Assembly (NCBI GenBank): GCA_016927185.1
Contig: JAFGND010000025.1
Location: forward strand, 15,889 to 79,888
Source: Candidatus Coatesbacteria bacterium
GTDB taxonomy: Bacteria > JAFGND01
Length of the DNA: 64,000 nt
Direction of reading: 5' to 3'
Below, piece by piece: positions 5,220 through 63,112 of this stretch. Numbering within the stretch: position 1 is the first letter of the stretch; every line of letters starts with the position of its first letter. Position numbers and translations under genes: made by a program. The notes beneath the pieces were generated by a model. The model was not told where the DNA came from. It saw only the letters and a list, made by a program, of their open reading frames with translations, and ran no database searches.

Positions 5220-6185
5220 ATGAAAAAGGTTCTCATATTGACAACTGGTGGAACAATCATGATGAGCTATGATCATGAAAGTGGCGTTATACCATCAAAA
5301 TCAGGTGCAGAATTGATAGCAAGTGTTCCCCAGGTTTCCGAATATGCACATGTTGATATTTGTGAATTCATGAATATTCCAAGCCCTCATATTACTCCTG
5401 AAAAAATGTTCGATTTGGCAAAGGAAGTAGACAGGCAGATAAAATATTATGACGGGATAATCATTACCCATGGAACTGATACTCTTGAAGAAACTGCATA
5501 CATGCTTGATCTGGTTTGCTCAAGCAGCAAGCCGATTGTATTCACAGCTGCAATGAGATCTAATGATGATATCGGAGTAGACGGGCCGAGAAACCTGCTT
5601 TCATCAGTAAGAACAGTTTGCAGTCCATCAGCAATTGGCAAGGGTGTAATGGTAGTTCTGAATGATACCATATTTGGAGCAAGAGAAGTTACCAAGACTT
5701 GTACAAATAATGTTGCTGCCTTTGAAAGTCCGCAATATGGCCATCTTGGAGTGGTAGATGAAGACAGGATAGTTTTCTACAGGGAAAGTACGGTCAGAGA
5801 CAGGATAATCACTGATTCAATTGATTCAAGAGTAGAGCTAATAAAAATGACAGCAGGAAGTGATTCCAAATTTTTCCATACCTGTATAGATGCTGGCATG
5901 AAAGGTATTGTTGTTGAAGCACTTGGAAGAGGTAATATCCCTCCATCTGCAATCGAGGGAGTTAAGAAAGCACTTGATGCTAAATTGATAATTATAATGG
6001 TATCAAGAACTTATAATGGAAGAGTGCTGGATGTATATGGTTATGAGGGTGGGGGGAAAAAACTGAAAGAGATGGGTGTTATCATGGGAGGAGATTTGAG
6101 AGGTCCGAAAGCAAGGATAAAATTAATGGTTCTTTTAGGCAAGAACGCTTCACGAGAAGAAATAATTTCTACATTTGATGATTAA
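5220..6185 (+). CDS. ansA: L-asparaginase, type I
   Basis: 'MKKVLILTTGGTIMM' (TGGTI threonine motif) and 'ITHGTDTLEETAY'. The track ORF 4662-6185 is a run-through; the real start is the ATG at 5220. The upstream part is an antisense shadow of the 4256-5101 gene. Confidence 0.8.
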   Translation: MKKVLILTTGGTIMMSYDHESGVIPSKSGAELIASVPQVSEYAHVDICEFMNIPSPHITPEKMFDLAKEVDRQIKYYDGIIITHGTDTLEETAYMLDLVCSSSKPIVFTAAMRSNDDIGVDGPRNLLSSVRTVCSPSAIGKGVMVVLNDTIFGAREVTKTCTNNVAAFESPQYGHLGVVDEDRIVFYRESTVRDRIITDSIDSRVELIKMTAGSDSKFFHTCIDAGMKGIVVEALGRGNIPPSAIEGVKKALDAKLIIIMVSRTYNGRVLDVYGYEGGGKKLKEMGVIMGGDLRGPKARIKLMVLLGKNASREEIISTFDD

Positions 6186-14577: not shown

Positions 14578-16338
14578 TCAATTAAGCTTTATAAGCTTGT
14601 CAGTATGCTCTCTGGAGCCTGTCCTAACTTTTATTATATATACTCCATTTTTGAAGGAACTGGTATCAGTCGTTATCAAGTGATTTCCTGCAGTATAAGA
14701 TCTTGATGCGTATGATTTTACAAGTCTTCCTGTAATATCATAAATAAGCACTTCAACATTATCTGTCTGTTTCAGATTGAAGTTAATCTTCAGTTTGTCA
14801 TTGAAAGGATTTGGAGATATCTTTACTCTCTCAGGTAAATGAAAATAGGATTTCTCTTTTGTTTCAAAACCAGTCTTGGTGAAATATAAGTCTATTACCT
14901 TGATTTCTCCTTCTGCAACAGTGAATGTCTGTGACTGAGGAGTGTCTCCAAGTAATATTGCTACAAGGGTATATGTTCCGGGAACAAGCAGATGTTTATA
15001 ACTTCCAAATGAATTAGAGAATACTGCTGAGGCTTTTTCGTTATCAAACAATTCAGCTATCTCTACAAGTACATTTGGTATTGGCTTGCCGTTCAGTTTA
15101 TTATATGTTTTTCCTGTTACCTGTGTCATATTAAGCCCAGCTTTCAGGAATTCCTTTGTTCCCTCGAAAGCATTCTCTATGGTTGGAAGAATATACTCAG
15201 CAGATGGGAAAAATCCACCTTCATCAGAGGAATTCAGTTCTATTGTATATGCATAGGTATGACCAGCTGCATATAACCAGTCATCGCTTCCGCCATAAGT
15301 AGGATATAGCTCATAACCTCTTTGTCCAGTATATCCCATTGTTGTGGCAGCTGCATTTCCAATTTTCCTGAATACTGCATCCTTCTTTGAAGCTTCGCTG
15401 TAACAACTCCAAGGCCACAGAACCAGCTCTCCATATGAATGAAAACTCAATGAAAGTAGTGGCTTTTTGGCAAGAGTGAAACTTCTTATTATCTGGATTT
15501 CAGGTTCACTAAACTGGGATGGACCTCTGTATGTTGGGCTGTTTGGATCAGTATCTCCTGATTCCCACATATATGCATAATTCCTGTTAAGATCAACTCC
15601 ATCTGCTCCATATCCTCCATAAGAATAATCCAGTACTCCGTTCGAATTGTTGTCCCTGAAATCCTTGCGCCACATTTGCTGCTCACTGTCAGTTGAATTG
15701 AAAACAAAATCATAACCATCTGGATTCACAATAGGAAGGAACCATAGCTCATAATTGTCTATCCATTCCTTGTAATCAAGTACGCTGCTGTAACCTTCCA
15801 CAAGTGTGTTCATAATATACATTACGGCTGAAACTGACATAGGTTCCCTTGCATGATGCAATCCCATTATCATGAAAATAGGCTCATCTTCATCAGTCGC
15901 AACATTGTCAGATACTTTTGCTACAAGCATATCAAAGCCTTTGTAATACGTCTGTTTGCCAGGATAACCATTCTTTTTTACCCAGGAATCTCCAGCATCA
16001 AAGTACTTGACTATACCTGGAAATCGCGTCTGGAGACTCATGATCTGTTCATAGACTTCTGAATAATCAAGATAATCAGGATCTATTCCTCCTATCATTT
16101 TCTTTAGTATAGTTCCGGAATAACCCAGTCTTTTGAGTTTCTCTATCTGCACAGGAGTAACAAGTAAATGAGCAGTCTTATTTGGAAGTATTGCTGCTAC
16201 ATCAAAGCCTGCTTTATAGAGTTTTGCTATTAGCTCAGGCGTAATTCCCCTTAATTCATATGTATATAGCGGAGCAGATGAGAAAAGCCCTGCATACATA
16301 ATTAAAATAAAGGTCAGTACAACAAAAAATATTTTCAT
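14578..16338 (-). CDS. M14-family zinc carboxypeptidase with T9SS C-terminal domain
   Basis: Signal peptide. 'GLHHAREPMS' (HxxE zinc motif of M14). C-terminal 'KISPNPFNDKLKINF…VEVLIYDITGRLV…NGVYIIKV' is a classic T9SS CTD. Confidence 0.8.
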   Translation of the reverse strand: MKIFFVVLTFILIMYAGLFSSAPLYTYELRGITPELIAKLYKAGFDVAAILPNKTAHLLVTPVQIEKLKRLGYSGTILKKMIGGIDPDYLDYSEVYEQIMSLQTRFPGIVKYFDAGDSWVKKNGYPGKQTYYKGFDMLVAKVSDNVATDEDEPIFMIMGLHHAREPMSVSAVMYIMNTLVEGYSSVLDYKEWIDNYELWFLPIVNPDGYDFVFNSTDSEQQMWRKDFRDNNSNGVLDYSYGGYGADGVDLNRNYAYMWESGDTDPNSPTYRGPSQFSEPEIQIIRSFTLAKKPLLSLSFHSYGELVLWPWSCYSEASKKDAVFRKIGNAAATTMGYTGQRGYELYPTYGGSDDWLYAAGHTYAYTIELNSSDEGGFFPSAEYILPTIENAFEGTKEFLKAGLNMTQVTGKTYNKLNGKPIPNVLVEIAELFDNEKASAVFSNSFGSYKHLLVPGTYTLVAILLGDTPQSQTFTVAEGEIKVIDLYFTKTGFETKEKSYFHLPERVKISPNPFNDKLKINFNLKQTDNVEVLIYDITGRLVKSYASRSYTAGNHLITTDTSSFKNGVYIIKVRTGSREHTDKLIKLN

Positions 16339-16396: not shown

Positions 16397-18163
16397 TTAA
16401 TTGATTTTCAATGCCTTCTTTATAAATATTTTATCCGCTACTCTGCATCTTAATATATAAACTCCATTACTCATGTTGCTGGAATTAAACCTGACTCCAT
16501 GATTACCAGAAGGATAAGAAGCCTTGACTAGTGTCTTGATAAGTCTTCCAGTCAGATCAAAGACCTCGACTAAAACATCAGATTTTTCACTGAGATTGAA
16601 GCTTATATTAAGCTCATTTCTGAAAGGGTTTGGAGCTAATTTTAAAGCTTCGGGAAGAATTTTTTGTGCAGTCTCGTTATTCTTGAAGCCGGCATAATCA
16701 AAATAAAAGTCTATTTCCTTTATTTCCTTGTCTGCAACAGTGAATGGTATTGTCTGTTTTGGATTAGCTCCATATTCTGCCTCAAGTGTATAATTTCCCG
16801 GAACCAATAAATAACGATATCTTCCGAATTCGTTTGTTTTCCTTGGAGTCCAGTGATTTGGATCATTAAGTTCCCTTATTGTGACTTTTACACCCTTGAT
16901 TGGATTTCCTGTTCCCCTAAGGAATGCTCTTCCAGTAACCTGTGTTGACAAACCATTTACAAAGAAAGCCCTCAAGCCTGACCATACTTTTTTCTGAGTG
17001 GGTTCTATCATTTCTGCTGGTGGAAAAAATCCGCCTTCATTATCTGTATTCATTTCTATTGTATAAGGATATGTACCAAGTTCAGCATATAACCAGTCAT
17101 CACTGGTTCCATAGCATGGATAAAGTTCCACTGCCTGTTCGGGAGTATAACCCATAGGAACTGCTGATTCTCTGCCGATCTTAGACAGAAGAGCTGCTTC
17201 CGTTGATGCAGAATAATAGCATCCCCATGGCCATAATACCAATCCTGAATAAGAATGCAAACTAACTGAAATAACTGGTTTCTTTGATAATGTCAAAGTT
17301 CTTATAACCTGAACCTCAGGTTCACTGAATGGATAAGGTCCGCGATACGTAGCAGAATACTGTGAATTATCACCTCTGCTCCATTCAAAAGAATAGTTCC
17401 TGTTCAAATCAACTCCATCAAGTCCATTGGCGCTACTACCGAAGTCTGCTTTGTGATTATTATTGTTATCTCTCAGATTCTTTCTCTGATTTTTTTCCCT
17501 GTTGTCATGATAATTAAATGATACATTATGACCATCTGGGTTTAACAATGGTACAAACCATATCTCATAAGAATCTACCCAGTTCTTGTATTCCGAGTTT
17601 GTTGCATATTGCTCTATGAGCTGCTGCATTGCATAAACCGAAACCTCAACTGTCATTGCCTCTCTTGCATGATGCAATGCCATGATAAGTAAAACAGGCT
17701 CATCTTCATCGGAATTTACATTATCAGATACCTTGAGTCCCATAATATCATAATCCTGATAATACCATTGATTATATTGCTTGTAATTGTTTGTCTTTAC
17801 CCATGGGTCACCCAGATCATAAAGCTTTGCAATGCCTGGATAATTTGAAGCAAGTCTCTGCATTTCCGTAAGAAGTTCATTATAATCAGTATATGCAGGA
17901 TCAAGCCCCTTGATATTGCTGTTTATCTCTCTCTTTATTACGCCAGAATAGCCAAGCGTTTTCAATTTTTCTATTTCATTCGCAGTAGCGAAAATGTGGG
18001 TGAATTTTCTAGGCATAACAGCTGCAACATCAAAACCTCTTGAAATTAGATCACCATTTTGTGAGCTCGTAAGGCCTTGAATTTCATATACATAAATGGG
18101 TTCGTCTGAGGATGCATAAGAGATAAAAAAGATAATAATACAAAAAGCAATTAATGTTTTCAT
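16397..18163 (-). CDS. M14-family zinc carboxypeptidase with T9SS C-terminal domain (tandem paralog)
   Basis: 'ALHHAREAMT'. C-terminal 'LAPNPFRNELNISF…VLVEVFDLTGRLI…NGVYILRC'. Homologous along its length to 14578-16338. Confidence 0.8.
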   Translation of the reverse strand: MKTLIAFCIIIFFISYASSDEPIYVYEIQGLTSSQNGDLISRGFDVAAVMPRKFTHIFATANEIEKLKTLGYSGVIKREINSNIKGLDPAYTDYNELLTEMQRLASNYPGIAKLYDLGDPWVKTNNYKQYNQWYYQDYDIMGLKVSDNVNSDEDEPVLLIMALHHAREAMTVEVSVYAMQQLIEQYATNSEYKNWVDSYEIWFVPLLNPDGHNVSFNYHDNREKNQRKNLRDNNNNHKADFGSSANGLDGVDLNRNYSFEWSRGDNSQYSATYRGPYPFSEPEVQVIRTLTLSKKPVISVSLHSYSGLVLWPWGCYYSASTEAALLSKIGRESAVPMGYTPEQAVELYPCYGTSDDWLYAELGTYPYTIEMNTDNEGGFFPPAEMIEPTQKKVWSGLRAFFVNGLSTQVTGRAFLRGTGNPIKGVKVTIRELNDPNHWTPRKTNEFGRYRYLLVPGNYTLEAEYGANPKQTIPFTVADKEIKEIDFYFDYAGFKNNETAQKILPEALKLAPNPFRNELNISFNLSEKSDVLVEVFDLTGRLIKTLVKASYPSGNHGVRFNSSNMSNGVYILRCRVADKIFIKKALKIN

Positions 18164-29421: not shown

Positions 29422-31635
29422 ATGCAAAAAGGATTGACAGCAGAATATAAAACCTCTTTTTATTTTGCTATTTCATTATCAGTAATATGTTTCTTTTTTT
29501 TTCAGTTTCTCATGGCAGATGATATTACATGGACCAACTGGGGTGAAGATGGAGGAGATTTTCTGGCATGTGCATCTATTCTTGGTATTCCTCACCCAAC
29601 TAGTTATCCATTTTATACACTGCTTCTAAAAGCATTTTTTCTGATATTTCCTTTTGGAAACATAGGCTTCAGGGGAAATTTGCTTTCATCAGTTTTTGCA
29701 TCATCAGGAATATACTTCTTTTATATGATTACATCAAGACTGCTTTCTTTCATTCCGCAGGTGAAGAAAGACAGAAAAGGAGTAATTTATGGATTGCCTT
29801 TGCTTGTATGTATCATACTTGCATTAAGCAGAATTTTCTTGAGCCAGGCAATAATTACTGAAGTATATTCCCTGAATGCACTAATCTTTTTAATGAGTAT
29901 TCATTTCCTTTTAAAATGGGTGTTTGAAAAGAAAACCAATTACTTGATATTTGTATTTTATTTACTGGGATTGGGTTTCAGCCACCATGGCAGCATAATT
30001 TTCTTCATCCCTCTTCTATTGTCTGTTTTGATAAGATTTAAAAAAAGATTAAATGCAAGAATTGCTTTTTTTTCAATATTCATATGGTTGATTGGTCTTA
30101 CTCCTTATCTATATGATCCATTAAGAGCAATCCAGAATCCTCATTTATCGTGGGGTACACCATATTGCTTTTCTAAATTCTATTGGATTATAACTGCTTC
30201 TCAATACAGGTACAGGATGTTCTCAAGACCATTTATGGAAAGTCTAAGAAAATTCCGTTCAAGTTATCATATTGAGCAACAGATTGGATACCTGGGAGTT
30301 TTCATATTCATCTGGACAGCAATTACTTTACTGTCAAGATTCAAGAAAGCAGGGAGAATACGAAGTAATTTCGGGATAATAGTCATGGGATTGTCTTTAT
30401 CATTTCTTGCTAATTTGATTTATTCATTCAATTACAATATTGCGGATATAAATGCTTATTATATACCAGGTTACATTATTGCTTGTATTTTTCTCTGTCT
30501 TGGAACAGGAATACTCATCAAGATATGGCAGGAGAGCTCTATTTTTTATCCAAAATCGTATTTACCTTTGGTAATTACACTGGTTTTATTGACTGCTCCA
30601 CTAATCCTGAACATCAGAAAATGCAATAGCAGGACAAAACAAGATGCAAAGGAATTTACAACAGAAGTATTCAATGCAGCAAAACCAAATGGAGTAATTC
30701 TTAGTGAATATGATGGCAGAACATTCGGGTTATGGTACAAAAGATATGGTCCCTTGAAAGATAAATCCCAGGTTTTCATTATTTATAAGTATCTTTTTAT
30801 ATGGGACTGGTATTTGGAGCATCTTCCAAAAGTAGCTAGCAGGCTTTTATATCCACCAAAATCACCTATTGTTGATGCATATTTATGTGATCTGATAACT
30901 CTTAACATTGGGAGATTGCCTTTGTATATGGTGCGGGAAGATCCAGTCATAAAAACGAACTGGGATCTTGTTAGATTATATGATGCAAAAATGCCTTTAT
31001 ATGAAATAAAAGAAAAAGCCAGACTTCCTGAGGTCAAGTATTCTGCAAAAGAAGATACAATGTTTATTGATATCAGTACATTTGCAAACAGCTGCTATAG
31101 TCAGGATCCATTCAGAATCGGTGATGTAAGTGGTAAACCTAATCATTTCATTGGGCTGGATGAAGGAGAATATAATTATCAAGGCATTCCATTCAAATTC
31201 ATGAAAGCTGTCACTGGCAAGGAGAATAAATTCAACTGCATTTCGACTTGCTTTTTATCAAGAACATCATTTAAAATTCCTCTTGTCCAGAAGAGAAGCA
31301 AGCATCTGGCTTTTGCATTGACTGGAGGTGCTATTGCAAACTATAAAGGAGCTGTCTTGAAACTCAAGGTAATATATAAAGATGGTATGAATGATGACTT
31401 TGTTCTTTACAGTTGCAAAGATATATATGAATATGGATTTAAAAAGTATGGAGCAGAAGCTCCTCCTCTTGAAAAAATAATATGGCAAAATAAAAAGGGA
31501 GCGTTTATTACTGGTTGTGAAATAGATTTGGACAATGAAAGAATTCCAGAGAAACTTGTTATAAGAAATGCTGGAATTGCAAACAACGCAGGAGTTTATC
31601 CAGGAGTGATTATCTTTGCAGTCACACAATATTGA
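29422..31635 (+). CDS. DUF2723-family polytopic membrane protein (TMEM260-like putative GT-C glycosyltransferase)
   Basis: N-terminal 'WGEDGGDFLACASILGIPHPTSYPFYTLL' resembles the DUF2723 signature. About 11 TM helices followed by a ~330-aa soluble C-terminal domain. Confidence 0.55.
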   Translation: MQKGLTAEYKTSFYFAISLSVICFFFFQFLMADDITWTNWGEDGGDFLACASILGIPHPTSYPFYTLLLKAFFLIFPFGNIGFRGNLLSSVFASSGIYFFYMITSRLLSFIPQVKKDRKGVIYGLPLLVCIILALSRIFLSQAIITEVYSLNALIFLMSIHFLLKWVFEKKTNYLIFVFYLLGLGFSHHGSIIFFIPLLLSVLIRFKKRLNARIAFFSIFIWLIGLTPYLYDPLRAIQNPHLSWGTPYCFSKFYWIITASQYRYRMFSRPFMESLRKFRSSYHIEQQIGYLGVFIFIWTAITLLSRFKKAGRIRSNFGIIVMGLSLSFLANLIYSFNYNIADINAYYIPGYIIACIFLCLGTGILIKIWQESSIFYPKSYLPLVITLVLLTAPLILNIRKCNSRTKQDAKEFTTEVFNAAKPNGVILSEYDGRTFGLWYKRYGPLKDKSQVFIIYKYLFIWDWYLEHLPKVASRLLYPPKSPIVDAYLCDLITLNIGRLPLYMVREDPVIKTNWDLVRLYDAKMPLYEIKEKARLPEVKYSAKEDTMFIDISTFANSCYSQDPFRIGDVSGKPNHFIGLDEGEYNYQGIPFKFMKAVTGKENKFNCISTCFLSRTSFKIPLVQKRSKHLAFALTGGAIANYKGAVLKLKVIYKDGMNDDFVLYSCKDIYEYGFKKYGAEAPPLEKIIWQNKKGAFITGCEIDLDNERIPEKLVIRNAGIANNAGVYPGVIIFAVTQY

Positions 31636-38532: not shown

Positions 38533-38700
38533 TTAAAACAAAGTGTATATGAAAGGTAATAAAGGAGAACTCCCGCCTGTTAATATTATCAATACTCCTA
38601 CAAGCAGCATAACTATAACTATCGGAGCTATCCACCAAATTTTATTCTGCCATAGAAATTCAAAGAATTCCTTTATTATGCCAAACTTGCTAACTTTCAT
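38533..38700 (-). CDS. Small (55 aa) membrane protein, DUF5989-like; not in ORF track
   Basis: rc translation MKVSKFGIIKEFFEFLWQNKIWWIAPIVIVMLLVGVLIILTGGSSPLLPFIYTLF*. Start ATG lies inside the last codons of def (…aATGAAAGTtag). Ending '…PFIYTLF' resembles DUF5989 small proteins. Confidence 0.5.
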   Translation of the reverse strand: MKVSKFGIIKEFFEFLWQNKIWWIAPIVIVMLLVGVLIILTGGSSPLLPFIYTLF

Positions 38701-39217
38701 TGCAAACCCCTTGAGCTAGTTTTCTCAGTTTTCTGCTTAAAAGAGTTTTCCTTAAAGGACTTAAGTAATCAACTATTAAAACACCTTCCAGATGATCATT
38801 TTCATGCTGAATTGCTCTTGCATATAAATCAGATACTACCATTTCAAAGTTATTTCCATCTAAATCTGTTGCCTTGACTTTGACGCTCTGTGCTCTCTCA
38901 ATGCTTGCAATTATATCTGGGAAAGATAAACATCCTTCTTCATCCAGATATTTACCTGTTTTTTCAGTAATGGAAGGATTTATGAATACTTTCACTCCTT
39001 CAATTCCTGTAAGGAATTTTTCCTCCAAAACGAATATTTTCAGGTTTTCACCTATTTGTGGAGCGGAAAGGCCAATACCTTTTGCTTTTTTTAGCACTAT
39101 GATCATTTTGTCAACAAGTTCTCTTACTTTGGCATCTAGAGTATCTACTTTCCTGGATTTCTTTCTTAATACAGGATCTCCATAAATTCTTATTCCCTCA
39201 ACAGGTTTATCGCTCAT
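38690..39217 (-). CDS. def: Peptide deformylase
   Basis: 'GIGLSAPQIG', 'EGCLSFPDI', 'QHENDHLEG' are the three PDF motifs. Confidence 0.85.
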   Translation of the reverse strand: MSDKPVEGIRIYGDPVLRKKSRKVDTLDAKVRELVDKMIIVLKKAKGIGLSAPQIGENLKIFVLEEKFLTGIEGVKVFINPSITEKTGKYLDEEGCLSFPDIIASIERAQSVKVKATDLDGNNFEMVVSDLYARAIQHENDHLEGVLIVDYLSPLRKTLLSRKLRKLAQGVCNES

Positions 39218-39633
39218 TTTTCAGATTGATCTTCTAATGAAGTATCGTCAGCACCCCCTTCTGGAATTGATTCCCCAGTTAAAACTCTGTCTATTGCACT
39301 AATCCTGAAGTCTATTCTAGTTTTTTCATTAACTCTTATTGTTATGACATCCTTTTTTACAGCTGCCACTGAACCTATTATACCACCAATTGTCATTATT
39401 TTATCATTCTTCTTGATGGAATTCAACATTGCTTCTCTTTCTTTCTGTTTTTTCTGATTTGGTCTATATATGAGAAAATAAAGAACCAATCCCAGTACTA
39501 TTATAAAACTGAAGGGATTGCCAAATATCATTCCTATTAATCCCCCCGGTTGAGAAGCTGTCATACCAGTCCCGGTTCCTGTTCCTGTTGTAGTTGCTAC
39601 AGTATCAGCTGCTTCCAATAATGCCAAGAACAA
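39214..39633 (-). CDS. yajC: Preprotein translocase subunit YajC (start codon uncertain; Thr/Gly-rich N-terminal extension)
   Basis: 'IIVLGLVLYFLIYRPNQKKQKE…IKKNDKIMTIGGIIG' is a typical YajC TM plus core. 4-nt overlap with def. Confidence 0.75.
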   Translation of the reverse strand: MFLALLEAADTVATTTGTGTGTGMTASQPGGLIGMIFGNPFSFIIVLGLVLYFLIYRPNQKKQKEREAMLNSIKKNDKIMTIGGIIGSVAAVKKDVITIRVNEKTRIDFRISAIDRVLTGESIPEGGADDTSLEDQSEK

Positions 39634-39778
39634 TATATACCTCCTATAAATATTATTTCAAAAAATAGCTATAGAATGCTAATAATTTGTCAAGAGAAAA
39701 GCCTAACTGAGATTCTTGTGTTATTAAATAATATTAAATTCTTGACAAATTAAGCTATTATTAAAGTCTCTCGCATAT

Positions 39779-40453
39779 ATGCCTATTCTTGGGGATTTGT
39801 CAATAAACATTATTCCACAAAACGTATATAGATATCAGGGAATACCTGCAACAGTTACCCCTGAAAAGAAAATTGTTGATTTGTATGAAAAATCTGTCGA
39901 AATCACAATGCAATTATCAAAACCAGTTGCAATATGGCAGAGATTCAAGATAGCTTCATTAAATCAGAAGGGACTAACATTTGGTAAGGAATACTGTTTC
40001 GAAACCTGCTTGTTTTACAGAAGATTTAATCAAGGAAGTGAAATTTTTCTTGCTGTAATGACTATTGGCAACGATATAGAGGATTACATAACCTCGCTTT
40101 TTGACAAAAAAGAATATGCACTTGCCTTATTTCTTGATTCTGCAGCATCAGAAGCTATCGAGTCTGTTGCAAGGGAATTCGAAGAAAAAATAAGGATAAT
40201 GGCAGCAGGGGAAAGCAAGTTTATAAGTCCAAGAGTATCACCAGGTTATGCAGACTGGAAAATCGAAGACCAGAGATTGATTTTCGATCTTTTGGAACCT
40301 TTGGAAATTGGTGTTACATTACTTGATTCATATACAATGATGCCAAGAAAATCAATAAGCCTGGCTATACTGATAGGGAATGAGAGATATAGATTCAATT
40401 CGAACAACGCATGCAGGAATTGTTCCCTGGACTGTCAGTTCAGGAAAGTCTGA
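39779..40453 (+). CDS. Stand-alone methionine-synthase activation-domain-like protein (Met_synt_B12-like)
   Basis: 'FLAVMTIGNDIED', 'FLDSAASEAIESVA', 'VSPGYADWKIEDQRLIFDLLEPLEIGVTLLDSYTMMPRKSISLAILIG' follow the PF02965-like pattern (TiG…SPGYgdW…iGvtLte…P.KSvs). Confidence 0.5.
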   Translation: MPILGDLSINIIPQNVYRYQGIPATVTPEKKIVDLYEKSVEITMQLSKPVAIWQRFKIASLNQKGLTFGKEYCFETCLFYRRFNQGSEIFLAVMTIGNDIEDYITSLFDKKEYALALFLDSAASEAIESVAREFEEKIRIMAAGESKFISPRVSPGYADWKIEDQRLIFDLLEPLEIGVTLLDSYTMMPRKSISLAILIGNERYRFNSNNACRNCSLDCQFRKV

Positions 40454-40454
40454 T

Positions 40455-41576
40455 TTACTGGATATCAAGAACTCTATAGTGACAGTATTCAGGCTCATTC
40501 TTGTCGAAATTATACAAATGAAGCGAACCACCATTGCAGAAATCCCACCAATTGCATTTCTTGCAAATGCCATTACATAAATATTTCCTGTCTCTCATGT
40601 TCTTGTATTCATTTTCCCATATATCCTTGAATCTTCTTTCAAGAACGTTTCCCTGTATGAATCTCTTATCAAGATTGGGGCAAGCTGCTGCGCTGCCATC
40701 ACATAAAATGCTTCCAATAGAAATTCCAGCAAGGCAAGCGAATAATCTTGGTCTGACAATTCCTTCATAAGCGAGACCAAGGAAACCTGCTTCAGCAAAT
40801 TCATAATTACAGTCTGGATGCTTTTCCCTGATGGATTTTATGAATTCGAGAACTTTCAGGAGATTCCTTTTTTGCAGGGAGAATCTTCCGTCTCTGGCTC
40901 GCCCTATCGGATCAACTGGAAGTATACGCCAGTAATCAAGACCTGATTCAGTTATAAACTCGTAAATTTCATACAGGTCATCTATATTGTCATTATGAAC
41001 ACAAGTCAGAATTTCTATTATGTTGAAATAATGAGAGGAAAACGCATCAATAATACCTTCTTTTACTTGCCTGTATGTTCCCTTCTTATTCCTGAGATAA
41101 TCATGTGAGTTCTCGTTTCCATCAAGGCTAATTGAAATTGCCTTGAGATCAGCTTTTTTCAGTTTCTCAATATTCTCTTTATTAAGAAGTGTCCCATTAG
41201 TGACTATCTGAACATAGTAACCTAATCCGCTTAATAACTCTATTATATCGTAAATGTCTTCTCTCACTAAAGGTTCGCCACCAGTAACTGATAAAGGGAA
41301 TTCACTTACCGGAAAATCCTCAGCAATTTCCTTGAAAATCTTCTCAATCTGCAACAGAGTCAATTCTTCATATGGCGTTTTCCAGTTACAAGATGAGCCG
41401 CAATGAATGCAGTTAAGATTACATTTTCTTGTTACTTCAAGGAAAAGATACTGAAGCAAATGATCCTTCCTTATTTCGTCCAGTGCGTTCTTCCATTCGT
41501 AAAGATCTCCAATACGCCTGATTTTTTCTATCAAAGAAATCTTTCTTGATTGGTTTTCATGCATTCCGTTTTTCAA
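40455..41576 (-). CDS. Radical SAM enzyme with C-terminal SPASM domain
   Basis: 'VTRKCNLNCIHCGSS' (CX3CX2C), 'VTGGEPLV'. C-terminal Cys cluster 'CLAGISIGSILCDGSAAACPN…CNGICKKCNWWDFCNGG' is SPASM-type. Confidence 0.75.
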   Translation of the reverse strand: MKNGMHENQSRKISLIEKIRRIGDLYEWKNALDEIRKDHLLQYLFLEVTRKCNLNCIHCGSSCNWKTPYEELTLLQIEKIFKEIAEDFPVSEFPLSVTGGEPLVREDIYDIIELLSGLGYYVQIVTNGTLLNKENIEKLKKADLKAISISLDGNENSHDYLRNKKGTYRQVKEGIIDAFSSHYFNIIEILTCVHNDNIDDLYEIYEFITESGLDYWRILPVDPIGRARDGRFSLQKRNLLKVLEFIKSIREKHPDCNYEFAEAGFLGLAYEGIVRPRLFACLAGISIGSILCDGSAAACPNLDKRFIQGNVLERRFKDIWENEYKNMRDRKYLCNGICKKCNWWDFCNGGSLHLYNFDKNEPEYCHYRVLDIQ

Positions 41577-41600
41577 GATAAATGTCTCTTATTTGTCAAA

Positions 41601-41632
41601 CAAAAAAACCCCTTCATATGAAGGGGTTTTGT
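41601..41632 (-). terminator. Rho-independent terminator after the VWA gene
   Basis: 'aaaaaccccttcatatgaaggggtttt' is a GC-rich perfect stem, followed in minus orientation by tttttgtttg. Confidence 0.7.
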
Positions 41633-41649
41633 TGGGGGAGAGACAAGTA

Positions 41650-43068
41650 TTATCTGGCTCGTTCATTAAATGCGTCTTGCTGCATTGCTTTCTTTATGTG
41701 TCTTCCTGTTTCAGAAGAGGCTGCAGGTGCTGTTCCCATTTGCTCAACCTGAGTTTTTGCTTTTTGACTTGTTGTCATTTGTTCTGCAATTTCTGCATCC
41801 TTTAGTTTTTCCTGGGCTTTCTTTGCTTCTTTATATGCTTGCTCTAATTTTATCCTGGCTGCTGTATTATCACCCTTATCAAGTTCTTCTGCTGCAACAT
41901 AATTCGCTTCACTCAGTTTGTATTTAGTATGGTACTTAAGTACTATACGATTGGCAAGAGGATCCTGACCACCAGCATTTGGATCGATTTTTATGCGTAC
42001 CTTTTTTGCTTCATTGAAAGACCTGTTAAGAGCTGGTGAATTATATTTAAGCTTTATATTTGCCAAATCCTGCATTCCTTTTCCATTCTCAGCTTTTAGT
42101 TCGATAAGATATGCGCTTTTAATTCCCCTCGAAATATCACTTGGAAGTATATAAACTACATTACCAGTTCTTGTAAATCTTGGGTTGCCATAGATTTTTA
42201 TCAAATCTACCCCATCAGGAAGTGTTATCTCTATTCTCAGGTTCTTGGCAACTGTCTGGGAAATCATGTTAAGTTCTTTCAGGAAAACTTCTGCAAGTTG
42301 AATTGGTTCATTTATATAATAATAGTTTCCTCCTGCTTTTTCAGCAATAGAAACCATGAGGTTTTCATTGTAATCAGTACCTACTCCGACAGTGCTTATT
42401 CCCATTCCCTGATAATTCATTTGAGTTGTATATTTGGATATGGCTGAAGGATTTATTACGCCAACATTTGCAAGTCCGTCGCTGAGAAGCAGAAGCTTGT
42501 TAATCCTGCTGTCTGATTTGAATGTTCGAAGCTGATTGTAACCTTCTGTTACACCACCAAACAAATTAGTGTTTCCTGAAGCATGTATCTGGTTTATGCG
42601 TTGTATGATATCATTTCTGTCATTTACATAACTAGCAGGGAGTATAACTTTTATTTGAGTATCATATGTTACTATAGATAAAATATCTTGTTCATTCAAG
42701 TTATTAATAAGCATTTTTGCAGCTTGTTTTACCTGATCCAGTTTTCTGCCCATCATTGAACCAGATTTGTCTATTACAATTGACAGATTTAGTGGTGCTC
42801 GTTTTTCGATATTCTGATTGCAACCCTGTAAGCCAACCAGCAGAAATGCCCTTCCATCATTAGTTACTGGATTACCTAAAAATGTTTGAAGACCAAGAGG
42901 TTTATCAACAGGTGGAGGTGTCCACTCTTCTGTTATAATCAAAGGTTGATTCGGTCTTAGATTTCCATGTTCAATTCTTCCTGGTGCATCTGAGCCTGGT
43001 CTGAATAGAATTAAGAGCAAAACCACTGCTAGAAGAAGCCCGAAAACTGCTATTGTCGACTTGTTCAT
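41650..43068 (-). CDS. Membrane-anchored von Willebrand factor A (VWA) domain protein with C-terminal coiled coil
   Basis: N-terminal TM. 'LNLSIVIDKSGSMMG' (MIDAS DxSxS) and 'LLLSDGLANVG'. K/E/A-rich C-terminal tail. Confidence 0.7.
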   Translation of the reverse strand: MNKSTIAVFGLLLAVVLLLILFRPGSDAPGRIEHGNLRPNQPLIITEEWTPPPVDKPLGLQTFLGNPVTNDGRAFLLVGLQGCNQNIEKRAPLNLSIVIDKSGSMMGRKLDQVKQAAKMLINNLNEQDILSIVTYDTQIKVILPASYVNDRNDIIQRINQIHASGNTNLFGGVTEGYNQLRTFKSDSRINKLLLLSDGLANVGVINPSAISKYTTQMNYQGMGISTVGVGTDYNENLMVSIAEKAGGNYYYINEPIQLAEVFLKELNMISQTVAKNLRIEITLPDGVDLIKIYGNPRFTRTGNVVYILPSDISRGIKSAYLIELKAENGKGMQDLANIKLKYNSPALNRSFNEAKKVRIKIDPNAGGQDPLANRIVLKYHTKYKLSEANYVAAEELDKGDNTAARIKLEQAYKEAKKAQEKLKDAEIAEQMTTSQKAKTQVEQMGTAPAASSETGRHIKKAMQQDAFNERAR

Positions 43069-43295
43069 CTCTACCTCCTTAAATTCCTTTCACAGATACT
43101 TAGTAAAAAAAAATGGATTTATTCCCGAAAAAATATTTCTTTGACAAAAAAAAAATACTATATAGAAAATACAAGAGAATAAGATAACAAAAAAACCAAT
43201 ATACAAGATGTTATGACAGTATAACGTGTTTAACAAAAACCTTGACAGTGTCCCTTGCATCTTCTTACCATGCTGTCGTTGAGTTTTGCAGATAA

Positions 43296-43928
43296 TTGAA
43301 ATCAGGAGTGGATTATATGAAAAAAAGTGATATTATGGGAGTTTTTTTCCTTATACTTGTAATAGTCTTGATTATAATATTTTATAAAGAGATAGGGGAG
43401 ATTACAAAACAACATCCATTCATTCTAGGTTTCATTAAGTTATTCATACTCGGAACTTTTGGGGAAATGATAAAATACAGAATGTCATCCGGTTCCTGGA
43501 AACTAGACAAGATTATTCTGAGGGCATTTATCTGGGGTCTTTATGGGATCTGGTTTACATGGTCATTTGCATATGCTGATTCAGGAACCAAAGGCTTGAT
43601 AAGCAAAAATCTATGGCTGGATGCAGGACCACTTGCTACTGCTTTCTCAACAAGCCTCTGGTTGAATATCCTGGGAGGCTTCGCATATTTCATGATGCTT
43701 ATTCATGAATACCTTAATTTCTGCATCAGGGAAGGAAAACTAATCAACACGATAACATTTGGAGAACAGCTGAACAAGAAAATATGGTTTCAGTTCATTC
43801 CCCTTACATTGTTCATCTGGCTTGTTCTTCACACATTTACGTATATGCTTCCTGAGCAGTTCAGGGTTTTATCTGCAGCTTTACTGGCAATTGTACTTGG
43901 ATTTCTGCTGAGTTTTGGAAAGAAGTAA
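43296..43928 (+). CDS. Hypothetical polytopic membrane protein
   Basis: 5-6 predicted TM helices. No recognised motif. Start could be the internal Met (MKKSDIM). Confidence 0.4.
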   Translation: MKSGVDYMKKSDIMGVFFLILVIVLIIIFYKEIGEITKQHPFILGFIKLFILGTFGEMIKYRMSSGSWKLDKIILRAFIWGLYGIWFTWSFAYADSGTKGLISKNLWLDAGPLATAFSTSLWLNILGGFAYFMMLIHEYLNFCIREGKLINTITFGEQLNKKIWFQFIPLTLFIWLVLHTFTYMLPEQFRVLSAALLAIVLGFLLSFGKK

Positions 43929-45245
43929 TCATATATCGAGAATTAACGGGCTAGATAGCAAATTCTTATAGATTTCTTTTGGTTGATTAAAATATCCAAT
44001 GAAGAGACTGGGAAATTCCTTGTTAAGATTTAATACAAAATGCTTCATTCCAAATGGTTTTTCATAATCTGGCTCAAGCATATTGAAATAATAATCAGGA
44101 TCAATATTCAGGTTCTTCATATGAATCATATTGACTTTAGTTTCTTTCAGAAGAGCTGTTAACTCATCCAGTTCCATCTTTGTATCAGTTATGCCTGGAA
44201 AGATGAGATAATTAATCATTGTGAACAAACCTGCATCAACAGATCTTTTTATGGTTTCTCTTACATCACGGAAGGAATAATTCATTGGTTTGTAATATGT
44301 GTCATATAGCTTTTTTCTTGCACTATTAAGAGAAATTCTTATGGAATCGAGACCAGCTTTTGCCAGGTTATCAATAACCTCAGGCTTGCTGCCATTGGTA
44401 TTTAGATTTATTGTACCCCTGCTGGTTTTCTCCCTTAGAATCCTGGTTGTTTCTATTAACAAGTCAGACTGAAGCAGTGGCTCACCTTCACATCCCTGTC
44501 CAAAACTAACTATTGCATCATCTGCATTTTCAAGATGGGGAAGCATGAGTTCGGTTATTTCAGAAACTTCAGGAACAAATTTTATTCTTTCATGTGATGC
44601 AGGAAATCCGCTTTGAGCAGACTGAAAAGAAAGGCATCCAAGACAGTTGCTGTTGCATGCAGGTGAAGTTGGGATAGGAGCTTCCCAGCGCTTCAGGAAA
44701 AGGTTCTTTGCAGCAAAGCAGTGATAATCAGTTGCACAATTGGCGAGATGCCTGAATAACCTGTTATCCTTGTATTTGGTTTCGAACTGCTCAATATTCC
44801 TTAATAAATCCCTGTCATCGTAATTTTCTGGATACCATTTTGGATTATCCTCTATCTTGAATGCTGCTGCAAAAAGTTTTCCATCCATCTCACCACATGC
44901 AGTGTAAGCCCACATTGGAAGAGGTTTTTCAGAAGCCCTTCCGAAATGGGATAAATATATTCTTATATATCCAGGTGGCAGAAAAGCAGATACCGTGAAA
45001 CATGGTTCCCTTTCATCATGCGGAAGCTTGTATAGATATTCAGGAGTTTTTTTTTCGCTGTCATAACCAATTGCAGGGAAATCCGGTATATAAAACAGTT
45101 TGGTTCCCTCTGGTATCTCAATCCAGCATTCAGGTTTTGGTTTTGAGAATTTGTAAGGAGTGAAACCGACTGCATGAAGAGACTGATGGGAATAAATGTT
45201 TCCTGTTTTATCTGAATACAACAACTTTGGGGATTTGTTTTTCAT
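43929..45245 (-). CDS. Radical SAM protein with ~190-aa N-terminal domain (subfamily unassigned)
   Basis: 'PACNSNCLGCLSF' (CX3CX2C), 'SFGQGCEGEPLL'. Likely start is the ATG at 45243-45245 (MKNKSPK…). The track extends to a GTG at 45254 that sits in the upstream terminator. Confidence 0.65.
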   Translation of the reverse strand: MKNKSPKLLYSDKTGNIYSHQSLHAVGFTPYKFSKPKPECWIEIPEGTKLFYIPDFPAIGYDSEKKTPEYLYKLPHDEREPCFTVSAFLPPGYIRIYLSHFGRASEKPLPMWAYTACGEMDGKLFAAAFKIEDNPKWYPENYDDRDLLRNIEQFETKYKDNRLFRHLANCATDYHCFAAKNLFLKRWEAPIPTSPACNSNCLGCLSFQSAQSGFPASHERIKFVPEVSEITELMLPHLENADDAIVSFGQGCEGEPLLQSDLLIETTRILREKTSRGTINLNTNGSKPEVIDNLAKAGLDSIRISLNSARKKLYDTYYKPMNYSFRDVRETIKRSVDAGLFTMINYLIFPGITDTKMELDELTALLKETKVNMIHMKNLNIDPDYYFNMLEPDYEKPFGMKHFVLNLNKEFPSLFIGYFNQPKEIYKNLLSSPLILDI

Positions 45246-45260
45246 AAAAAACACGGATAT

Positions 45261-45284
45261 CTGTAATATCCGTGAATATGCTTA
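45261..45284 (-). terminator. Rho-independent terminator ending the rpoBC-rpsLG operon
   Basis: Stem cacggatat/atatccgtg with a 6-nt loop, followed in minus orientation by a U-run (gtgtttttt). Confidence 0.6.
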
Positions 45285-45299
45285 AATATTGTGAAAAAT

Positions 45300-45767
45300 C
45301 TATTTGAAATGAGCATAAGCTTTGTTTGCTTCTGCCATCTTGAAGGTATCTTCCTTTTTCTTGATGGAGCCACCTTTGTTATTATAGGCATCCATCAATT
45401 CACCTGCAAGCTTCTTGACCATCGTTCTTTCAGGTCGGTTTTTTGCATAATTTATTATCCATCTTATTGCAAGTGTTCTTCTTCTGTCAGAACGTACTTC
45501 AACAGGAACCTGATATGTAGCTCCACCAACTCTCTTGGAAGCAACTTCCAGAATAGGTTTTACATTGGCAATTGCTTTTTCAAATACCTCGTATCCATCC
45601 TTGCTTGCTTTTTTTGCTACTTCATCTATTGCCGAATACAATATATGCTGGGCAATACTCCTTTTCCCGCGTTGCATCAATGAATTAATGAATTTCGTGC
45701 AAAGAACGGAATTATACTTTGGGTCCGGTTCAATTCTGCGCTTTTCTGGTCTTCTACGTCTTGGCAT
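45300..45767 (-). CDS. rpsG: 30S ribosomal protein S7
   Basis: '[20 protein letters not shown]…' is a canonical S7 N-terminus. Confidence 0.9.
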
Positions 45768-45778
45768 TTAGTTCCCTC

Positions 45779-46159
45779 CTAGGCTTTTTTCTTTGGTTTT
45801 TTGGTTCCGTATTTTGAGCGACCTCTCATTCTTCCGTCAACTCCTGTTGCCTGCTCTGCTCCTCTTATTATATGATACCTTACACCAGGTAAGTCTTTCA
45901 CGCGTCCACCTCTTACTAATACTTGGTAGTGCTCTTGTATTGTATGTCCTTCACCAGGTATGTAAGATGTTACTTCAATACCATTTGTTAACCTTACACG
46001 TGTCACCTTTCTCTGGGCGGAATTGGGTTTTTTCGGAGTTGCAATATAAACTCTTGTGCATACGCCTTTTCTTTGAGGATTTCCTTTCAAAGCTGGTGCC
46101 TTGTTCTTCTTGGTTTTCATCTTGCGTTCATGACGCATAGTTTGATTGATGGTTGGCAA
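45779..46159 (-). CDS. rpsL: 30S ribosomal protein S12
   Basis: '[52 protein letters not shown]' is a canonical S12. Confidence 0.9.
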
Positions 46160-58025: not shown

Positions 58026-59225
58026 TTAATCTTCTACTGATGATATTACTCCAGCACCAACTGTCTTTCCTCCTTCACGAATGGCAAAATTCAATCCCTG
58101 TTCAAGTGCTATAGGATTTATAAGTTCAATCTTGATAGTAAGGTTGTCACCAGGCATTACGAATTTTGCTTCTTCAGGAAGATGTATGGTTCCTGTTACA
58201 TCTGTTGTTCTGAAATAGAACTGAGGACGATAGCCATCCTTGAAGCTTGAGTGGCGTCCTCCTTCTTCTCTCTTCAGAATGTAGACTTGTGCAGTAAATT
58301 TCGTATGTGGTTTAATGGAACCCGGCTTTGCAAGTACCATTCCTCTTTCTATGTCAGTTTTTTCGATTCCGCGCAGCAATAAACCTACATTATCTCCTGC
58401 TTCTGCCCTGTCAAGGATCTTATGGAACATTTCAACACCAGTTACAACTGTTCTCTTGGTTTCCCTGATACCGATGCGTTCCATTTCGTCGCCTATCTTT
58501 ACTGTACCGCGTTCTACTCTCCCGGTTGCAACTGTTCCACGACCCGGAATTGAGAAAACGTCTTCAACAGGCATTAGGAAAGGTTTGTCGATGTCACGGC
58601 TTGGTGTCGGGACATAGGTATCAACAGCTTCCATAAGCTCTACAACACTAGCGCATTTTTCACAAGTTTTTTCTCCACAACCGCAGTTCAATGCGAGTAG
58701 AGCAGATCCCTTTATTATTGGTACTTCTGAACCAGGGAATTTGTATGAGGTAAGCAGCTCTCTGAGCTCCATTTCAACAAGATCAAGAATTTCGGGATCA
58801 TCAACAAGGTCAACCTTGTTCATATAGACAACAATATAGGGAACTCCAACCTGACGAGCCAAGAGAATATGCTCTCTTGTTTGTGGCATTGGGCCATCTG
58901 CTGCAGATACAACCAATATTGCACCATCCATCTGTGCTGCACCTGTTATCATATTCTTGATATAGTCTGCATGACCTGGGCAGTCAACGTGGGCATAGTG
59001 ACGATTGTCAGTTTCGTACTCAACATGTGCAGTAGCAATAGTAATACCACGTTCGCGTTCTTCCGGAGCATTATCAATGCTATCGAAACTGCGGTACTTT
59101 GCCATTCCTTTTTTGGACAGACAAAGTGTTACTGCAGCTGTCAGCGTTGTCTTACCATGGTCAACATGCCCAATAGTTCCAACATTAACATGTGGTTTAG
59201 TTCTTTCAAATTTCTGTTTTGCCAT
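58026..59225 (-). CDS. tuf: Elongation factor Tu (with a Cys4 insertion in domain 1)
   Basis: '[13 protein letters not shown]', 'DCPGHADY', 'NKVD' GTPase motifs. 399 aa. Confidence 0.95.
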
Positions 59226-60981: not shown

Positions 60982-61449
60982 ATGGAAAAGTCATTTCAAG
61001 AAAGAAATACAAGTTGTTCAATCCTTGCAGCATCTTCAATATACATTTTATTATTTTACTCCATTCTCTTCTCAGCACCTGGGGATTTGATATGGAAATA
61101 TAAAACGAGTAATGGAGTTAAGTCTTCTCCTTGTGTTTCAGATGGAGTTGTTTTTGTTGGAAGTTATGATTATTATCTTTATGCAATAGAAACTTATGGG
61201 TATAAAGGTTTCAATGACAACAAATCAGCATCATATATCCCATCCAAAACCTTCTCAGTTTCTCCCAACCCCTTCTCCAATCGCTTGTCTCTTTCCCTGC
61301 CATCTTCAGGTGTAGTCTATTCCCTGACAGGTCAGCTGATTATGAAACTGGATAAAGGCAAGCATTCTATTGGCACAAGTAAATGGAAACAGGGAGTTTA
61401 TATTGTGAAGTCTGGGAAAGAATGCAAGAGGATTGTGAAGGTCAGGTAG
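60982..61449 (+). CDS. Truncated beta-propeller (single PQQ-like blade) fused to the family-specific T9SS-type C-terminal domain; possible gene remnant
   Basis: TM/signal, then 'GDLIWKYKTSNGVKSSPCVSDGVVFVGSYDYYLYAIE' (one PQQ/beta-propeller blade). Then a CTD about 80% identical to those of the 8591-9787 and 61874-63112 proteins. Confidence 0.5.
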   Translation: MEKSFQERNTSCSILAASSIYILLFYSILFSAPGDLIWKYKTSNGVKSSPCVSDGVVFVGSYDYYLYAIETYGYKGFNDNKSASYIPSKTFSVSPNPFSNRLSLSLPSSGVVYSLTGQLIMKLDKGKHSIGTSKWKQGVYIVKSGKECKRIVKVR

Positions 61450-61873: not shown

Positions 61874-63112
61874 ATGAAAACTGTAAATAAATTTAAGAAA
61901 TCACTACTTAAAGGAGTTACAATGAAAACGACAAACTCGTTAGTTATTATAATATTAGCATTTTCAATAGAATTTATTTCTTCTGAACCAATGTACATTT
62001 TATCATCCAGTTCCGATAGAACAATGAAATACTGGCAGATATCGGATACAAAATGTATAAGATCATTTACTGGTCATGAAGGTAGTGTTCGATTTGTATC
62101 AATCTCTCCAGATAGCAAGTATGCTTTGTCAGGGAGTGGTGATAATACATTGAAGTACTGGAACATTTCAGATGGAGCTTGCATAAGAACATTTACTGGT
62201 CATGATGATGAGGTAAATTCTGTTTCCATTTCACGAGATGGATTATATGCATTATCTGCAAGTAATGATCATACATTGAAATTATGGAGAATATCTGATG
62301 GAGCATGCTTGAGGACTTTTTATGGACACAATAGAGAAGTATGGTCGGTCTGCTTTTCACCTGATGATAGATATGCTTTATCAGGAGGTGATGATATAAA
62401 ATACTGGAATATTTCAGATGGTACCTGTATAAGGACATTAAGGGGACATGCTACTAGCGTAATGTCAGTATGTTTCAAAACTGATGGTCAATTTGTTCTT
62501 TCAGGAAGTGTTGATATGACCTTGAAATATTGGCAGTTATCAGATGGGAAATGTATAAGAACATTTACTGGACATACAGGATCAGTCAATTCAGTCTGTT
62601 TATCTTCAGATAACCTGTATGCTTTATCAGGTAGTTATGATCAGTTGATTAAATACTGGAGAGTATCTGATGGAGAATGCTTGAAAACGCTTGCAGGACA
62701 CATGAATTGTATTTATTCAGTTAACATTTCTTCTGATGGAAAATATGCAGTCTCAGGTGGAGATTATGGATCTCTTAAATACTGGAGTATATCAGAAGGC
62801 AAATTTATTAAATCATTTGAAGGACATGAAGCATCAGTAACATCAGTTAGTTTTTTCTCTCAGGAAACAAGTTTCAAAGATAACAATTCAGCATCACATA
62901 TTCCATCCAAAACCTTCTCAGTTTCCCCCAATCCATTCACTGAAAGACTTACTATTTCCCTGCCATCGTCAGGAGCTATCTATTCCATTACTGGTCAATT
63001 GATTATGAAACTGGATAAAGGAAAACACTCTCTTGATACAAGCAAATGGAAACGGGGAGTTTATATTGTGAAGAGCCTGATGGAATGCAAGAAGATTGTA
63101 AAGGTGAAGTAA
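61874..63112 (+). CDS. Secreted WD40 beta-propeller protein with T9SS-type C-terminal sorting domain
   Basis: Seven or more WD40 blades ('SSSDRTMKYWQ', 'SGSGDNTLKYWN', 'SASNDHTLKLWR'…). C-terminal 'SPNPFTERLTISLPSSGAIYSITGQLIMKLDKGKHSLDTSKWKRGVYIVKSLMECKKIVKVK'. The true start is possibly the internal Met of 'MKTTNSLVIIILAFS'. Confidence 0.75.
   Translation: MKTVNKFKKSLLKGVTMKTTNSLVIIILAFSIEFISSEPMYILSSSSDRTMKYWQISDTKCIRSFTGHEGSVRFVSISPDSKYALSGSGDNTLKYWNISDGACIRTFTGHDDEVNSVSISRDGLYALSASNDHTLKLWRISDGACLRTFYGHNREVWSVCFSPDDRYALSGGDDIKYWNISDGTCIRTLRGHATSVMSVCFKTDGQFVLSGSVDMTLKYWQLSDGKCIRTFTGHTGSVNSVCLSSDNLYALSGSYDQLIKYWRVSDGECLKTLAGHMNCIYSVNISSDGKYAVSGGDYGSLKYWSISEGKFIKSFEGHEASVTSVSFFSQETSFKDNNSASHIPSKTFSVSPNPFTERLTISLPSSGAIYSITGQLIMKLDKGKHSLDTSKWKRGVYIVKSLMECKKIVKVK

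Follow-up and report, generated by a model that had tools for sequence, protein, structure and literature searches.

Do five adjacent genes, two of which code for radical S-adenosylmethionine (SAM) enzymes, make up one maturation system, or are they merely neighbours on the chromosome? The question is raised by positions 39,779 to 45,260 of a stretch of 64,000 nucleotides from a Candidatus Coatesbacteria bacterium (assembly GCA_016927185.1, contig JAFGND010000025.1), the whole of which is called the window here. Gene A codes for a stand-alone homologue of the MetH activation domain, gene B for a radical SAM enzyme with a SPASM domain, gene C for a protein with a VWA domain, gene D for a membrane protein, and gene E for a second radical SAM enzyme. 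A preliminary description of this stretch had read them as a single functional cluster around the radical SAM/SPASM maturase. We think it probable, on the contrary, that these are five chromosomal genes with independent functions, a mosaic that lies between yajC-def and the rpoBC-rpsLG operon.

Conservation of the gene neighbourhood

Co-occurrence was tested from three sides, starting from loci with homologues of B, of A and of E. For B, a single genome from each GTDB species was scanned with a 10-sequence alignment of its homologues. To the 80 loci so obtained (34-43% identity) five metagenome contexts were added, and A, C, D and E were then searched by tblastn in these 85 loci, on up to 8 kb per side. 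No relative of A, C or D was found in any of the 85, and the E query gave three weak matches only, all of them on the radical SAM core of the B homologue itself. Seen from A, none of 80 metagenome loci with A relatives contained a relative of B, C, D or E; the association of B with the Met_synt_B12-like gene A, to which the preliminary description had drawn attention, is therefore absent from both sets of loci. Seen from E, six further contexts of its homologues share no gene with the window: one lies between a histidine kinase/response regulator pair and dnaA, one between genes for an Exo_endo_phos protein and YhdP, one follows era in the order rnc-radical SAM-era-E with rpsU convergent, and three are in unrelated neighbourhoods. 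Together with the terminators and the gene orientation described below, these three null results (0/85, 0/80 and 0/6) leave the idea of a single functional cluster unsupported.

Gene set and transcription units

All five genes of the preliminary description are present, and its domain assignments were correct according to Pfam (Met_synt_B12 for A, Radical_SAM plus SPASM for B, VWA for C and Radical_SAM for E). The features of the region are as follows.

38690-39633, minus strand: flanking yajC and def (peptide deformylase); Pfam YajC 83.7 bits, Pep_deformylase 156.9 bits
39779-40453, plus strand: gene A (JXA60_02845), 224 aa, predicted homologue of the MetH activation domain, stand-alone and TM0269-like, whose C-terminal tail reads CxxCxxxC
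40455-41564, minus strand: gene B (MBN1232278.1, annotated "radical SAM protein"), 369 aa, radical SAM/SPASM enzyme, placed by similarity in the outer shell of the TIGR04133 family
41605-41630, minus strand: hairpin of an intrinsic terminator between C and B, with an 11-bp stem and a T-run, then TTGACA
41650-43068, minus strand: gene C (MBN1232279.1, annotated "VWA domain-containing protein"), 472 aa, signal-anchored VWA protein with a metal ion-dependent adhesion site (MIDAS) motif, a C-terminal beta-domain and a charged tail
43069-43316, no strand: divergent C/D intergenic region, where D has promoter-like sites and both C and D a Shine-Dalgarno sequence
43317-43928, plus strand: gene D (JXA60_02860, annotated "hypothetical protein"), 203 aa, polytopic membrane protein without a family
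43929-45245, minus strand: gene E (MBN1232281.1, annotated "radical SAM protein"), 438 aa, member of a large radical SAM family, with a beta-rich N-terminal domain, a helical linker and a radical SAM core
45252-45274, minus strand: terminator hairpin between rpsG and E, with a 10-bp stem and TTTTTT, abutting the start codon of E
45300-46159, minus strand: flanking rpsG and rpsL, 3' of rpoC and rpoB; Pfam Ribosomal_S7 208.6 bits, S12 126.4 bits

Two gene starts had to be moved, that of B to ATG 41564, as in the NCBI call and in an exact-sequence look-up, and that of D to ATG 43317, which is preceded by AGGAG and gives a protein identical to the NCBI call. The models of B, C, D and E listed above agree with exact-sequence look-ups. 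Since these return shorter models for B, D and E, the longer TTG and GTG starts given by the open reading frame (ORF) tool, including TTG 41576 for B, are probably over-extended; the GTG of E is the final triplet of a hairpin stem. The start of C is preceded by AGGAGG, and the C/D intergenic region contains a promoter-like TTGACA-18-TACCAT at 43242-43271.

Two pairs are convergent: A and B, whose stop codons are separated by 1 nt, and D and E, which abut each other. C and D are divergent. The hairpin between C and B (41630-41605) has a folding energy of -18.2 kcal/mol (z=-4.1, with 0/200 shuffles folding as well), and TTGACA follows it at once. The hairpin between rpsG and E (45274-45252) reaches -12.6 kcal/mol (z=-6.3), and E does start right after the terminator of the rpoBC-rpsLG operon, as had been noticed, 2 nt past the T-run. 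From the two terminators and the convergent or divergent orientations it follows that the five genes form four or five transcription units.

An origin of the region as a mobile or horizontally acquired island was considered and rejected, the G+C content being uniform (0.34-0.39) and no flanking repeats having been found. The two radical SAM genes are the only ones among about 50 genes of the window. Because radical SAM genes are numerous in anaerobes, we regard the presence of two of them within four genes of each other as unremarkable. There is also no gene for a precursor of a peptide that is made on the ribosome and modified after translation (RiPP) beside the maturase: every ORF with 20 aa or more in 39600-41700 and 43069-43316 was looked at, and none of those in the three intergenic regions is peptide-like, in agreement with the preliminary description. 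The latter had been careful to add that a precursor could lie elsewhere, that the second radical SAM gene could be unrelated and that the clustering could be coincidental. These caveats were sound, and we judge the clustering coincidental on comparative grounds; the two findings that it had named as pointing that way, B being an anaerobic sulfatase-maturating enzyme (anSME) and E an RlmN or Cfr enzyme, did not occur.

Gene B and the partners of its relatives

The product of B matches Radical_SAM (PF04055, 90.6 bits) and SPASM (PF13186, 32.1 bits) in Pfam. Its best NCBIfam model is TIGR04133, "rSAM_w_lipo" (297.3 bits, over the full length including the SPASM cysteines), far ahead of the next one, AhbD (144.7 bits). 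This score is below the curated TIGR04133 cut-off of 425; Bacteroidales members reach 472 and 525 bits, and relatives from outside the Bacteroidales that do have a partner gene (see below) score 287, 299, 314 and 351 bits. Judged by these scores, B has its place in the outer shell of the TIGR04133 radical SAM/lipoprotein family, which is uncharacterised. In an alignment of 28 sequences, the three cysteines of the core CX3CX2C motif (C52, C56 and C59) are invariant, as are C281, G294, C299, C338, C341, C347, H353 and C365 in the SPASM region. When a profile of the B family was compared with the PDB, the best match was CteB (5WGG, E=1.1e-25), followed by BlsE, SkfB, GDGT-MAS, anSME and SuiB.

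Other identities fit less well. The anSME model (TIGR03942) is absent from the best 25 NCBIfam models of B, the lowest of which scores 69 bits, and relatives of B reach about 75 bits with it, the cut-off being 349; a Pfam scan of the window's ORFs from 120 aa upwards, except for some long ones that overlap other genes, detected no sulfatase. A viperin-type assignment suggested by PADLOC (71 bits) is non-specific, since TIGR04133 gives 297 bits. The B12-binding domain PF02310 has no match in B or in E.

What the relatives of B may act upon is indicated by their neighbours. In 52 of 84 loci a same-strand ORF for an exported protein with a Tyr-Gly (YG) motif directly adjoins the B relative, against 3 of 52 in control windows lying 3 kb away; the partner is upstream in 29 loci and downstream in 26, and the density of the motif is 0.7-1.1 per kb beside the gene versus 0.03 per kb further off. 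The partners have a signal peptide, a lipobox or a transmembrane anchor, together with the motif Y-G-[V/I/P]-P-x-P, often repeated, which lies in proline-rich linkers 28-76 residues from the N-terminus and has V, I or P, never N, as its third residue. Those of the Bacteroidales are TIGR04134 lipoproteins (95.5, 76.6 and 40.1 bits); the partners at loci L084, L078 and L055 match this model. No model fits those in metagenome-assembled genomes (MAGs) labelled Clostridia, Peregrinibacteria, Gammaproteobacteria and Pseudomonadota, and their radical SAM neighbours score 287-351 bits with TIGR04133. The partner at L017 is only 42 aa long, MKRK...AVYGPPPSEFTK. Examples of loci with a partner, from the series of B-homologue loci L009-L095, are L017:1873-3100, L026, L028:7442-7975 and L084:7551-7982. 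A literature search on TIGR04133 and TIGR04134 found no relevant paper.

This co-location suggests that the partner would be the substrate of the B relatives. B itself is probably a peptide- or protein-modifying radical SAM/SPASM enzyme of a broad TIGR04133-like clade. Its [4Fe-4S] cluster would cleave SAM reductively, and the 5'-deoxyadenosyl radical so generated would attack, ahead of export, the Tyr-Gly-(Val/Ile/Pro)-Pro motif that a small exported protein carries near its N-terminus. As this motif contains no cysteine, sactionine-type thioether chemistry seems unlikely for the family. No exported protein with a YG motif of this kind is encoded beside B or anywhere else in the window; with the usual partner not adjacent, the gene for the substrate of B may lie in another part of the genome, or B may be an orphan.

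Genes C and D

C was described as a membrane protein with a VWA domain and a MIDAS motif, and it is one: the VWA domain (PF00092) scores 70.9 bits, the DxSxS motif reads DKSGS (residues 100-104), and a single N-terminal hydrophobic anchor spans residues 4-22. Its matches in the PDB are 8S05 (E=5e-16) and the VWA2 protein 5A8J. We read C as a generic VWA/MIDAS protein of the adhesion type, secreted or anchored, whose gene has its own terminator. Tyr-Gly occurs in it once, as YGNP at residue 293; this motif is part of the beta-domain after the VWA fold, and in the alignment to 8S05 it is matched by YPGPP.

D is an unrelated membrane protein. It gave no Pfam or NCBIfam match even at E<=10 and forms a singleton cluster in the sequence look-up. 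Six transmembrane helices had been assigned to it; hydropathy gives four strong and about two weaker helices, and a single-sequence AlphaFold2 model, of low confidence (predicted local distance difference test, pLDDT, 66.8; predicted TM-score 0.41), is all-helical with six or seven.

Gene A

That A, which is convergent to B, is a stand-alone and by homology SAM-binding protein similar to the MetH activation domain is borne out by its matches to Met_synt_B12 (PF02965, 28.1 bits for a cut-off of 25) and to PDB 1J6R, which is Thermotoga maritima TM0269 (E=1.4e-13, aligned over residues 35-195). TM0269 is described as a separate protein needed to reactivate the split T. maritima MetH, TM0268 (Huang et al. 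2007, as cited in PMC7857596; bioRxiv 10.1101/192971). An exhaustive HMMER search returned 4305 relatives of A, nearly all of 200-250 aa and stand-alone. A and its closer relatives share a C-terminal CxxCx3-4C tail, with C212 and C215 invariant and C219 at least 90% conserved.

In the 80 loci with A relatives, the neighbours, confirmed by Pfam on representatives, are B12-binding proteins (36/80) and MttB-family proteins (32/80, typically directly downstream), then homocysteine S-methyltransferases (S-methyl_trans, 15/80), Pterin_bind proteins (12/80), URO-D/MtaA-like proteins (9/80) and B12-binding radical SAM proteins (6/80). The likeness to TM0269 and the company of corrinoid methyltransferases together mark A as a SAM-binding module of the TM0269 type that would reactivate corrinoid-dependent methyltransferases. 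Its usual partners are not near it here: Pfam detected no gene for MetH, MttB or a corrinoid partner in the window.

Gene E

The only Pfam domain of E is Radical_SAM, at residues 194-360. The first 190 residues or so, which the preliminary description could not assign, indeed gave no Pfam match at E<=10, and their domain has no solved relative in Foldseek. E has at least 7990 homologues, and those listed among the matches, which carry names such as Desulfofervidus and "Deltaproteobacteria", are about 50% identical to it over 95% of the length; the N-terminal region of 190 residues is therefore part of the family. Within this domain the alignment shows the invariant motifs LP-WAY-A-G and W-P-x2-Y-DD. 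Further on, C173, H178-C179 (in the motif HCFAAKN), the CX3CX2C motif (200-207) and SFGQGCEGEP with C255 are invariant. An AlphaFold2 model built with the alignment (pLDDT 85.6) has a beta-rich domain at about residues 10-135, helices at 150-186 and a radical SAM barrel. Compared with the PDB by Foldseek, it retrieves radical SAM cores only (NifB, LipA, HydE, PflA and MoaA, with TM-scores of 0.3-0.4) and no fold match for the N-terminal domain; sequence searches give BlsE and MoaA after NifB.

No subfamily model of NCBIfam fits E. It is not NifB, which is absent from its 19 NCBIfam hits and aligns at 29 bits only, and no nif genes are present in the window; nor is it RlmN or Cfr (TIGR00048, 24.6 bits for a cut-off of 290), nor a class B, cobalamin-dependent radical SAM enzyme, PF02310 giving no match and the N-terminal domain being predicted as all-beta. 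We take E for an enzyme that stands alone and whose radical SAM family is very large and uncharacterised. Its expression probably depends on read-through of the rpsG terminator or on a promoter inside rpsG.

A scan of viral contigs for E relatives returned one locus, L181 (IMG/VR GVMAG-S-404869-56_000001), which is filed as a giant-virus MAG. The neighbours of E there are ordinary bacterial genes (peroxiredoxin, aminotransferase, DUF1599, MauE/DoxX and NlpC/P60), and it is probably a mis-binned bacterial contig.

Alternative explanations

The most ambitious reading would unite the five genes in one maturation pathway, with the two radical SAM enzymes cooperating, A serving as a SAM-binding helper and the VWA and membrane proteins as substrates or export partners. 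The genes are adjacent within 5.5 kb, A should bind SAM by homology, and a relative of A lies near a B12-binding radical SAM gene in the 6 loci counted above; yet no pair among the five recurs in the 85, 80 and 6 contexts, neither B nor E carries a B12-binding domain, and the orientations and terminators divide the genes into several transcription units, so that we find this pathway extremely improbable. A narrower proposal is that C and B form a lineage-specific pair, in which B would have been retargeted from small YG-motif proteins to the VWA protein upstream, modifying it in the cytoplasm before export, much as anSMEs act on sulfatases. Several observations do weigh against complete independence of the five genes. 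Immediately upstream of B, and on its strand, stands C, where some 29 of the 84 loci have the partner. A sister contig, the sole other one from Coatesbacteria and with a B that is 89% identical, retains the VWA-B order and the convergent A; this sister is too close a relative for function to be separated from inheritance. The databases searched contained no B relatives at 45-88% identity, which leaves room for a link confined to this lineage. Moreover, C is exported or anchored and has one Y-G-x-P motif (IYGNPRF), and the 64 kb contain no canonical partner. Against the pair stand the strong terminator and the TTGACA that separate C from B, and the absence of a VWA gene near any of the 85 other B homologues. 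The YGNP of C is 270 residues from the signal anchor, inside a beta-domain common to VWA proteins without a radical SAM neighbour, whereas true partners carry their motif close to the N-terminus and never with N in third place; we estimate that YG.P would occur by chance in about 4% of proteins of 472 aa. The VWA protein, which the preliminary description had offered as a possible substrate, is consequently a weak candidate, and we consider a C-B pair very improbable.

The position of E calls for a separate discussion. It had been suggested that E could modify rRNA or tRNA. More broadly, E would be linked to translation, with rRNA, tRNA or a ribosomal protein as its target, and would be expressed by low-level read-through from rpsL-rpsG, an idea that is compatible with the independent reading of the other four genes. 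The start of E, so close to the rpsG terminator, leaves no room for a promoter of its own. At L180 (4102-6287) the homologue shares 4 nt with the 3' end of era, in the arrangement rnc-radical SAM (Radical_SAM_C)-era-E with rpsU convergent, and that at L001 is 3 kb from rnc-radical SAM-era. The family is also highly conserved, at about 50% identity from one phylum to another and with a large number of invariant residues, which points in the same direction. On the other hand, four of the seven contexts have no translation-related neighbours, L001 and L180 may share ancestry and would then not be independent cases, no RNA-binding domain can be recognised in E, it falls in no known RNA-modifying radical SAM family (RlmN, again, at 24.6 bits), and its nearest solved relatives are the cores of NifB, BlsE and MoaA. 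All in all a translation-linked role appears rather unlikely. The fuller version, in which E would be a widespread housekeeping radical SAM enzyme acting on the translation apparatus, its NifB-like H-C-F motif perhaps binding an auxiliary cluster, and would replace fusA behind an attenuating terminator here while being translationally coupled to era in another lineage, strikes us as decidedly unlikely. We retain the reading of five independent genes as the preferred one.

Flanks and remainder of the window

The identities of rpsG, rpsL, rpoC and rpoB are supported by Pfam. The str operon consists here of rpsL-rpsG, the terminator and then E (45245-46159), fusA not being in its usual place after rpsG, and tuf is found apart at 58026-59225, among tRNA genes.

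Elsewhere, tandem M14 zinc carboxypeptidases (14578-16338 and 16397-18163) each carry CarboxypepD_reg and Por_Secre_tail, the C-terminal sorting domain of type IX secretion, and a third Por_Secre_tail protein is encoded at 60982-61449. The segment 18433-25739 codes for a protein of 1263 aa with three AAA ATPase modules, then, on the same strand, for an M23 peptidase and a 715-aa protein without a Pfam match. Eukaryote-like repeats occur in one ankyrin-repeat protein and two WD40 beta-propeller proteins (2862-3416, 8591-9787 and 61874-63112). A 737-aa membrane protein (29422-31635) has a TMEM260-like (protein O-mannosyltransferase-like) domain. The 507-aa ORF at 4662-6185 (plus strand) is over-extended: its asparaginase domains begin at residue 189, its 5' part overlaps a well-supported EcsC gene on the opposite strand (4256-5101), and the metagenome gene call for the asparaginase is 321 aa.

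Significance

As a cluster, the locus is unimportant, and we do not think that it should be pursued as a RiPP or maturase locus. It is a piece of ordinary chromosome with one known family (A), two families that have names but are uncharacterised (B and E), a generic VWA protein and an unfamiliar membrane protein. The interest of the B and E families is general and independent of this window, and they can be addressed in cultivable relatives. The TIGR04133-like family extends across MAGs labelled Bacteroidales, Clostridia, Myxococcota, spirochaetes, candidate-phyla bacteria and others, and its pairing with YG-motif proteins provides a concrete substrate hypothesis, of which TIGR04134 captures the Bacteroidales form only. 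The E family is a large and highly conserved radical SAM family with no assigned function, whose N-terminal domain is without a known fold.

Comparison with known systems

B has the radical SAM core and the SPASM auxiliary-cluster domain in common with CteB (5WGG), SkfB (6EFN), SuiB (5V1Q), anSME (4K37) and PqqE (6C8V), with profile E-values from 1e-25 (CteB) to 4e-13 (PqqE). It differs from them in the absence of an N-terminal RRE domain, its alignment to CteB beginning at CteB residue 83, and, as read from the alignments, in its departure from the CX2CX5CX3C motif, the fourth cysteine of which is absent, an invariant histidine following instead. Compared with the TIGR04133/TIGR04134 system, B scores in the range of the non-Bacteroidales relatives that have a YG-motif partner, but it is below the cut-off and has no adjacent lipoprotein or exported YG-motif protein, the downstream position being taken by the convergent, unrelated gene A and the upstream one by the VWA protein behind its terminator.

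For E, the closest solved relative is NifB (6Y1X; E=3.2e-6, 29 bits; Foldseek E=5e-8, TM-score 0.38). The beta-rich N-terminal domain of about 135 residues, which has no solved counterpart, sets E apart from it, and the alignment of the two begins at the H-C-F motif upstream of CX3CX2C. As to the TM0269 system, A is encoded in a window without a MetH or corrinoid gene, and most of its relatives adjoin MttB-family and corrinoid proteins, not MetH; A is nevertheless of the same size as TM0269 and likewise stand-alone, and some of its relatives do adjoin the parts of a split MetH.

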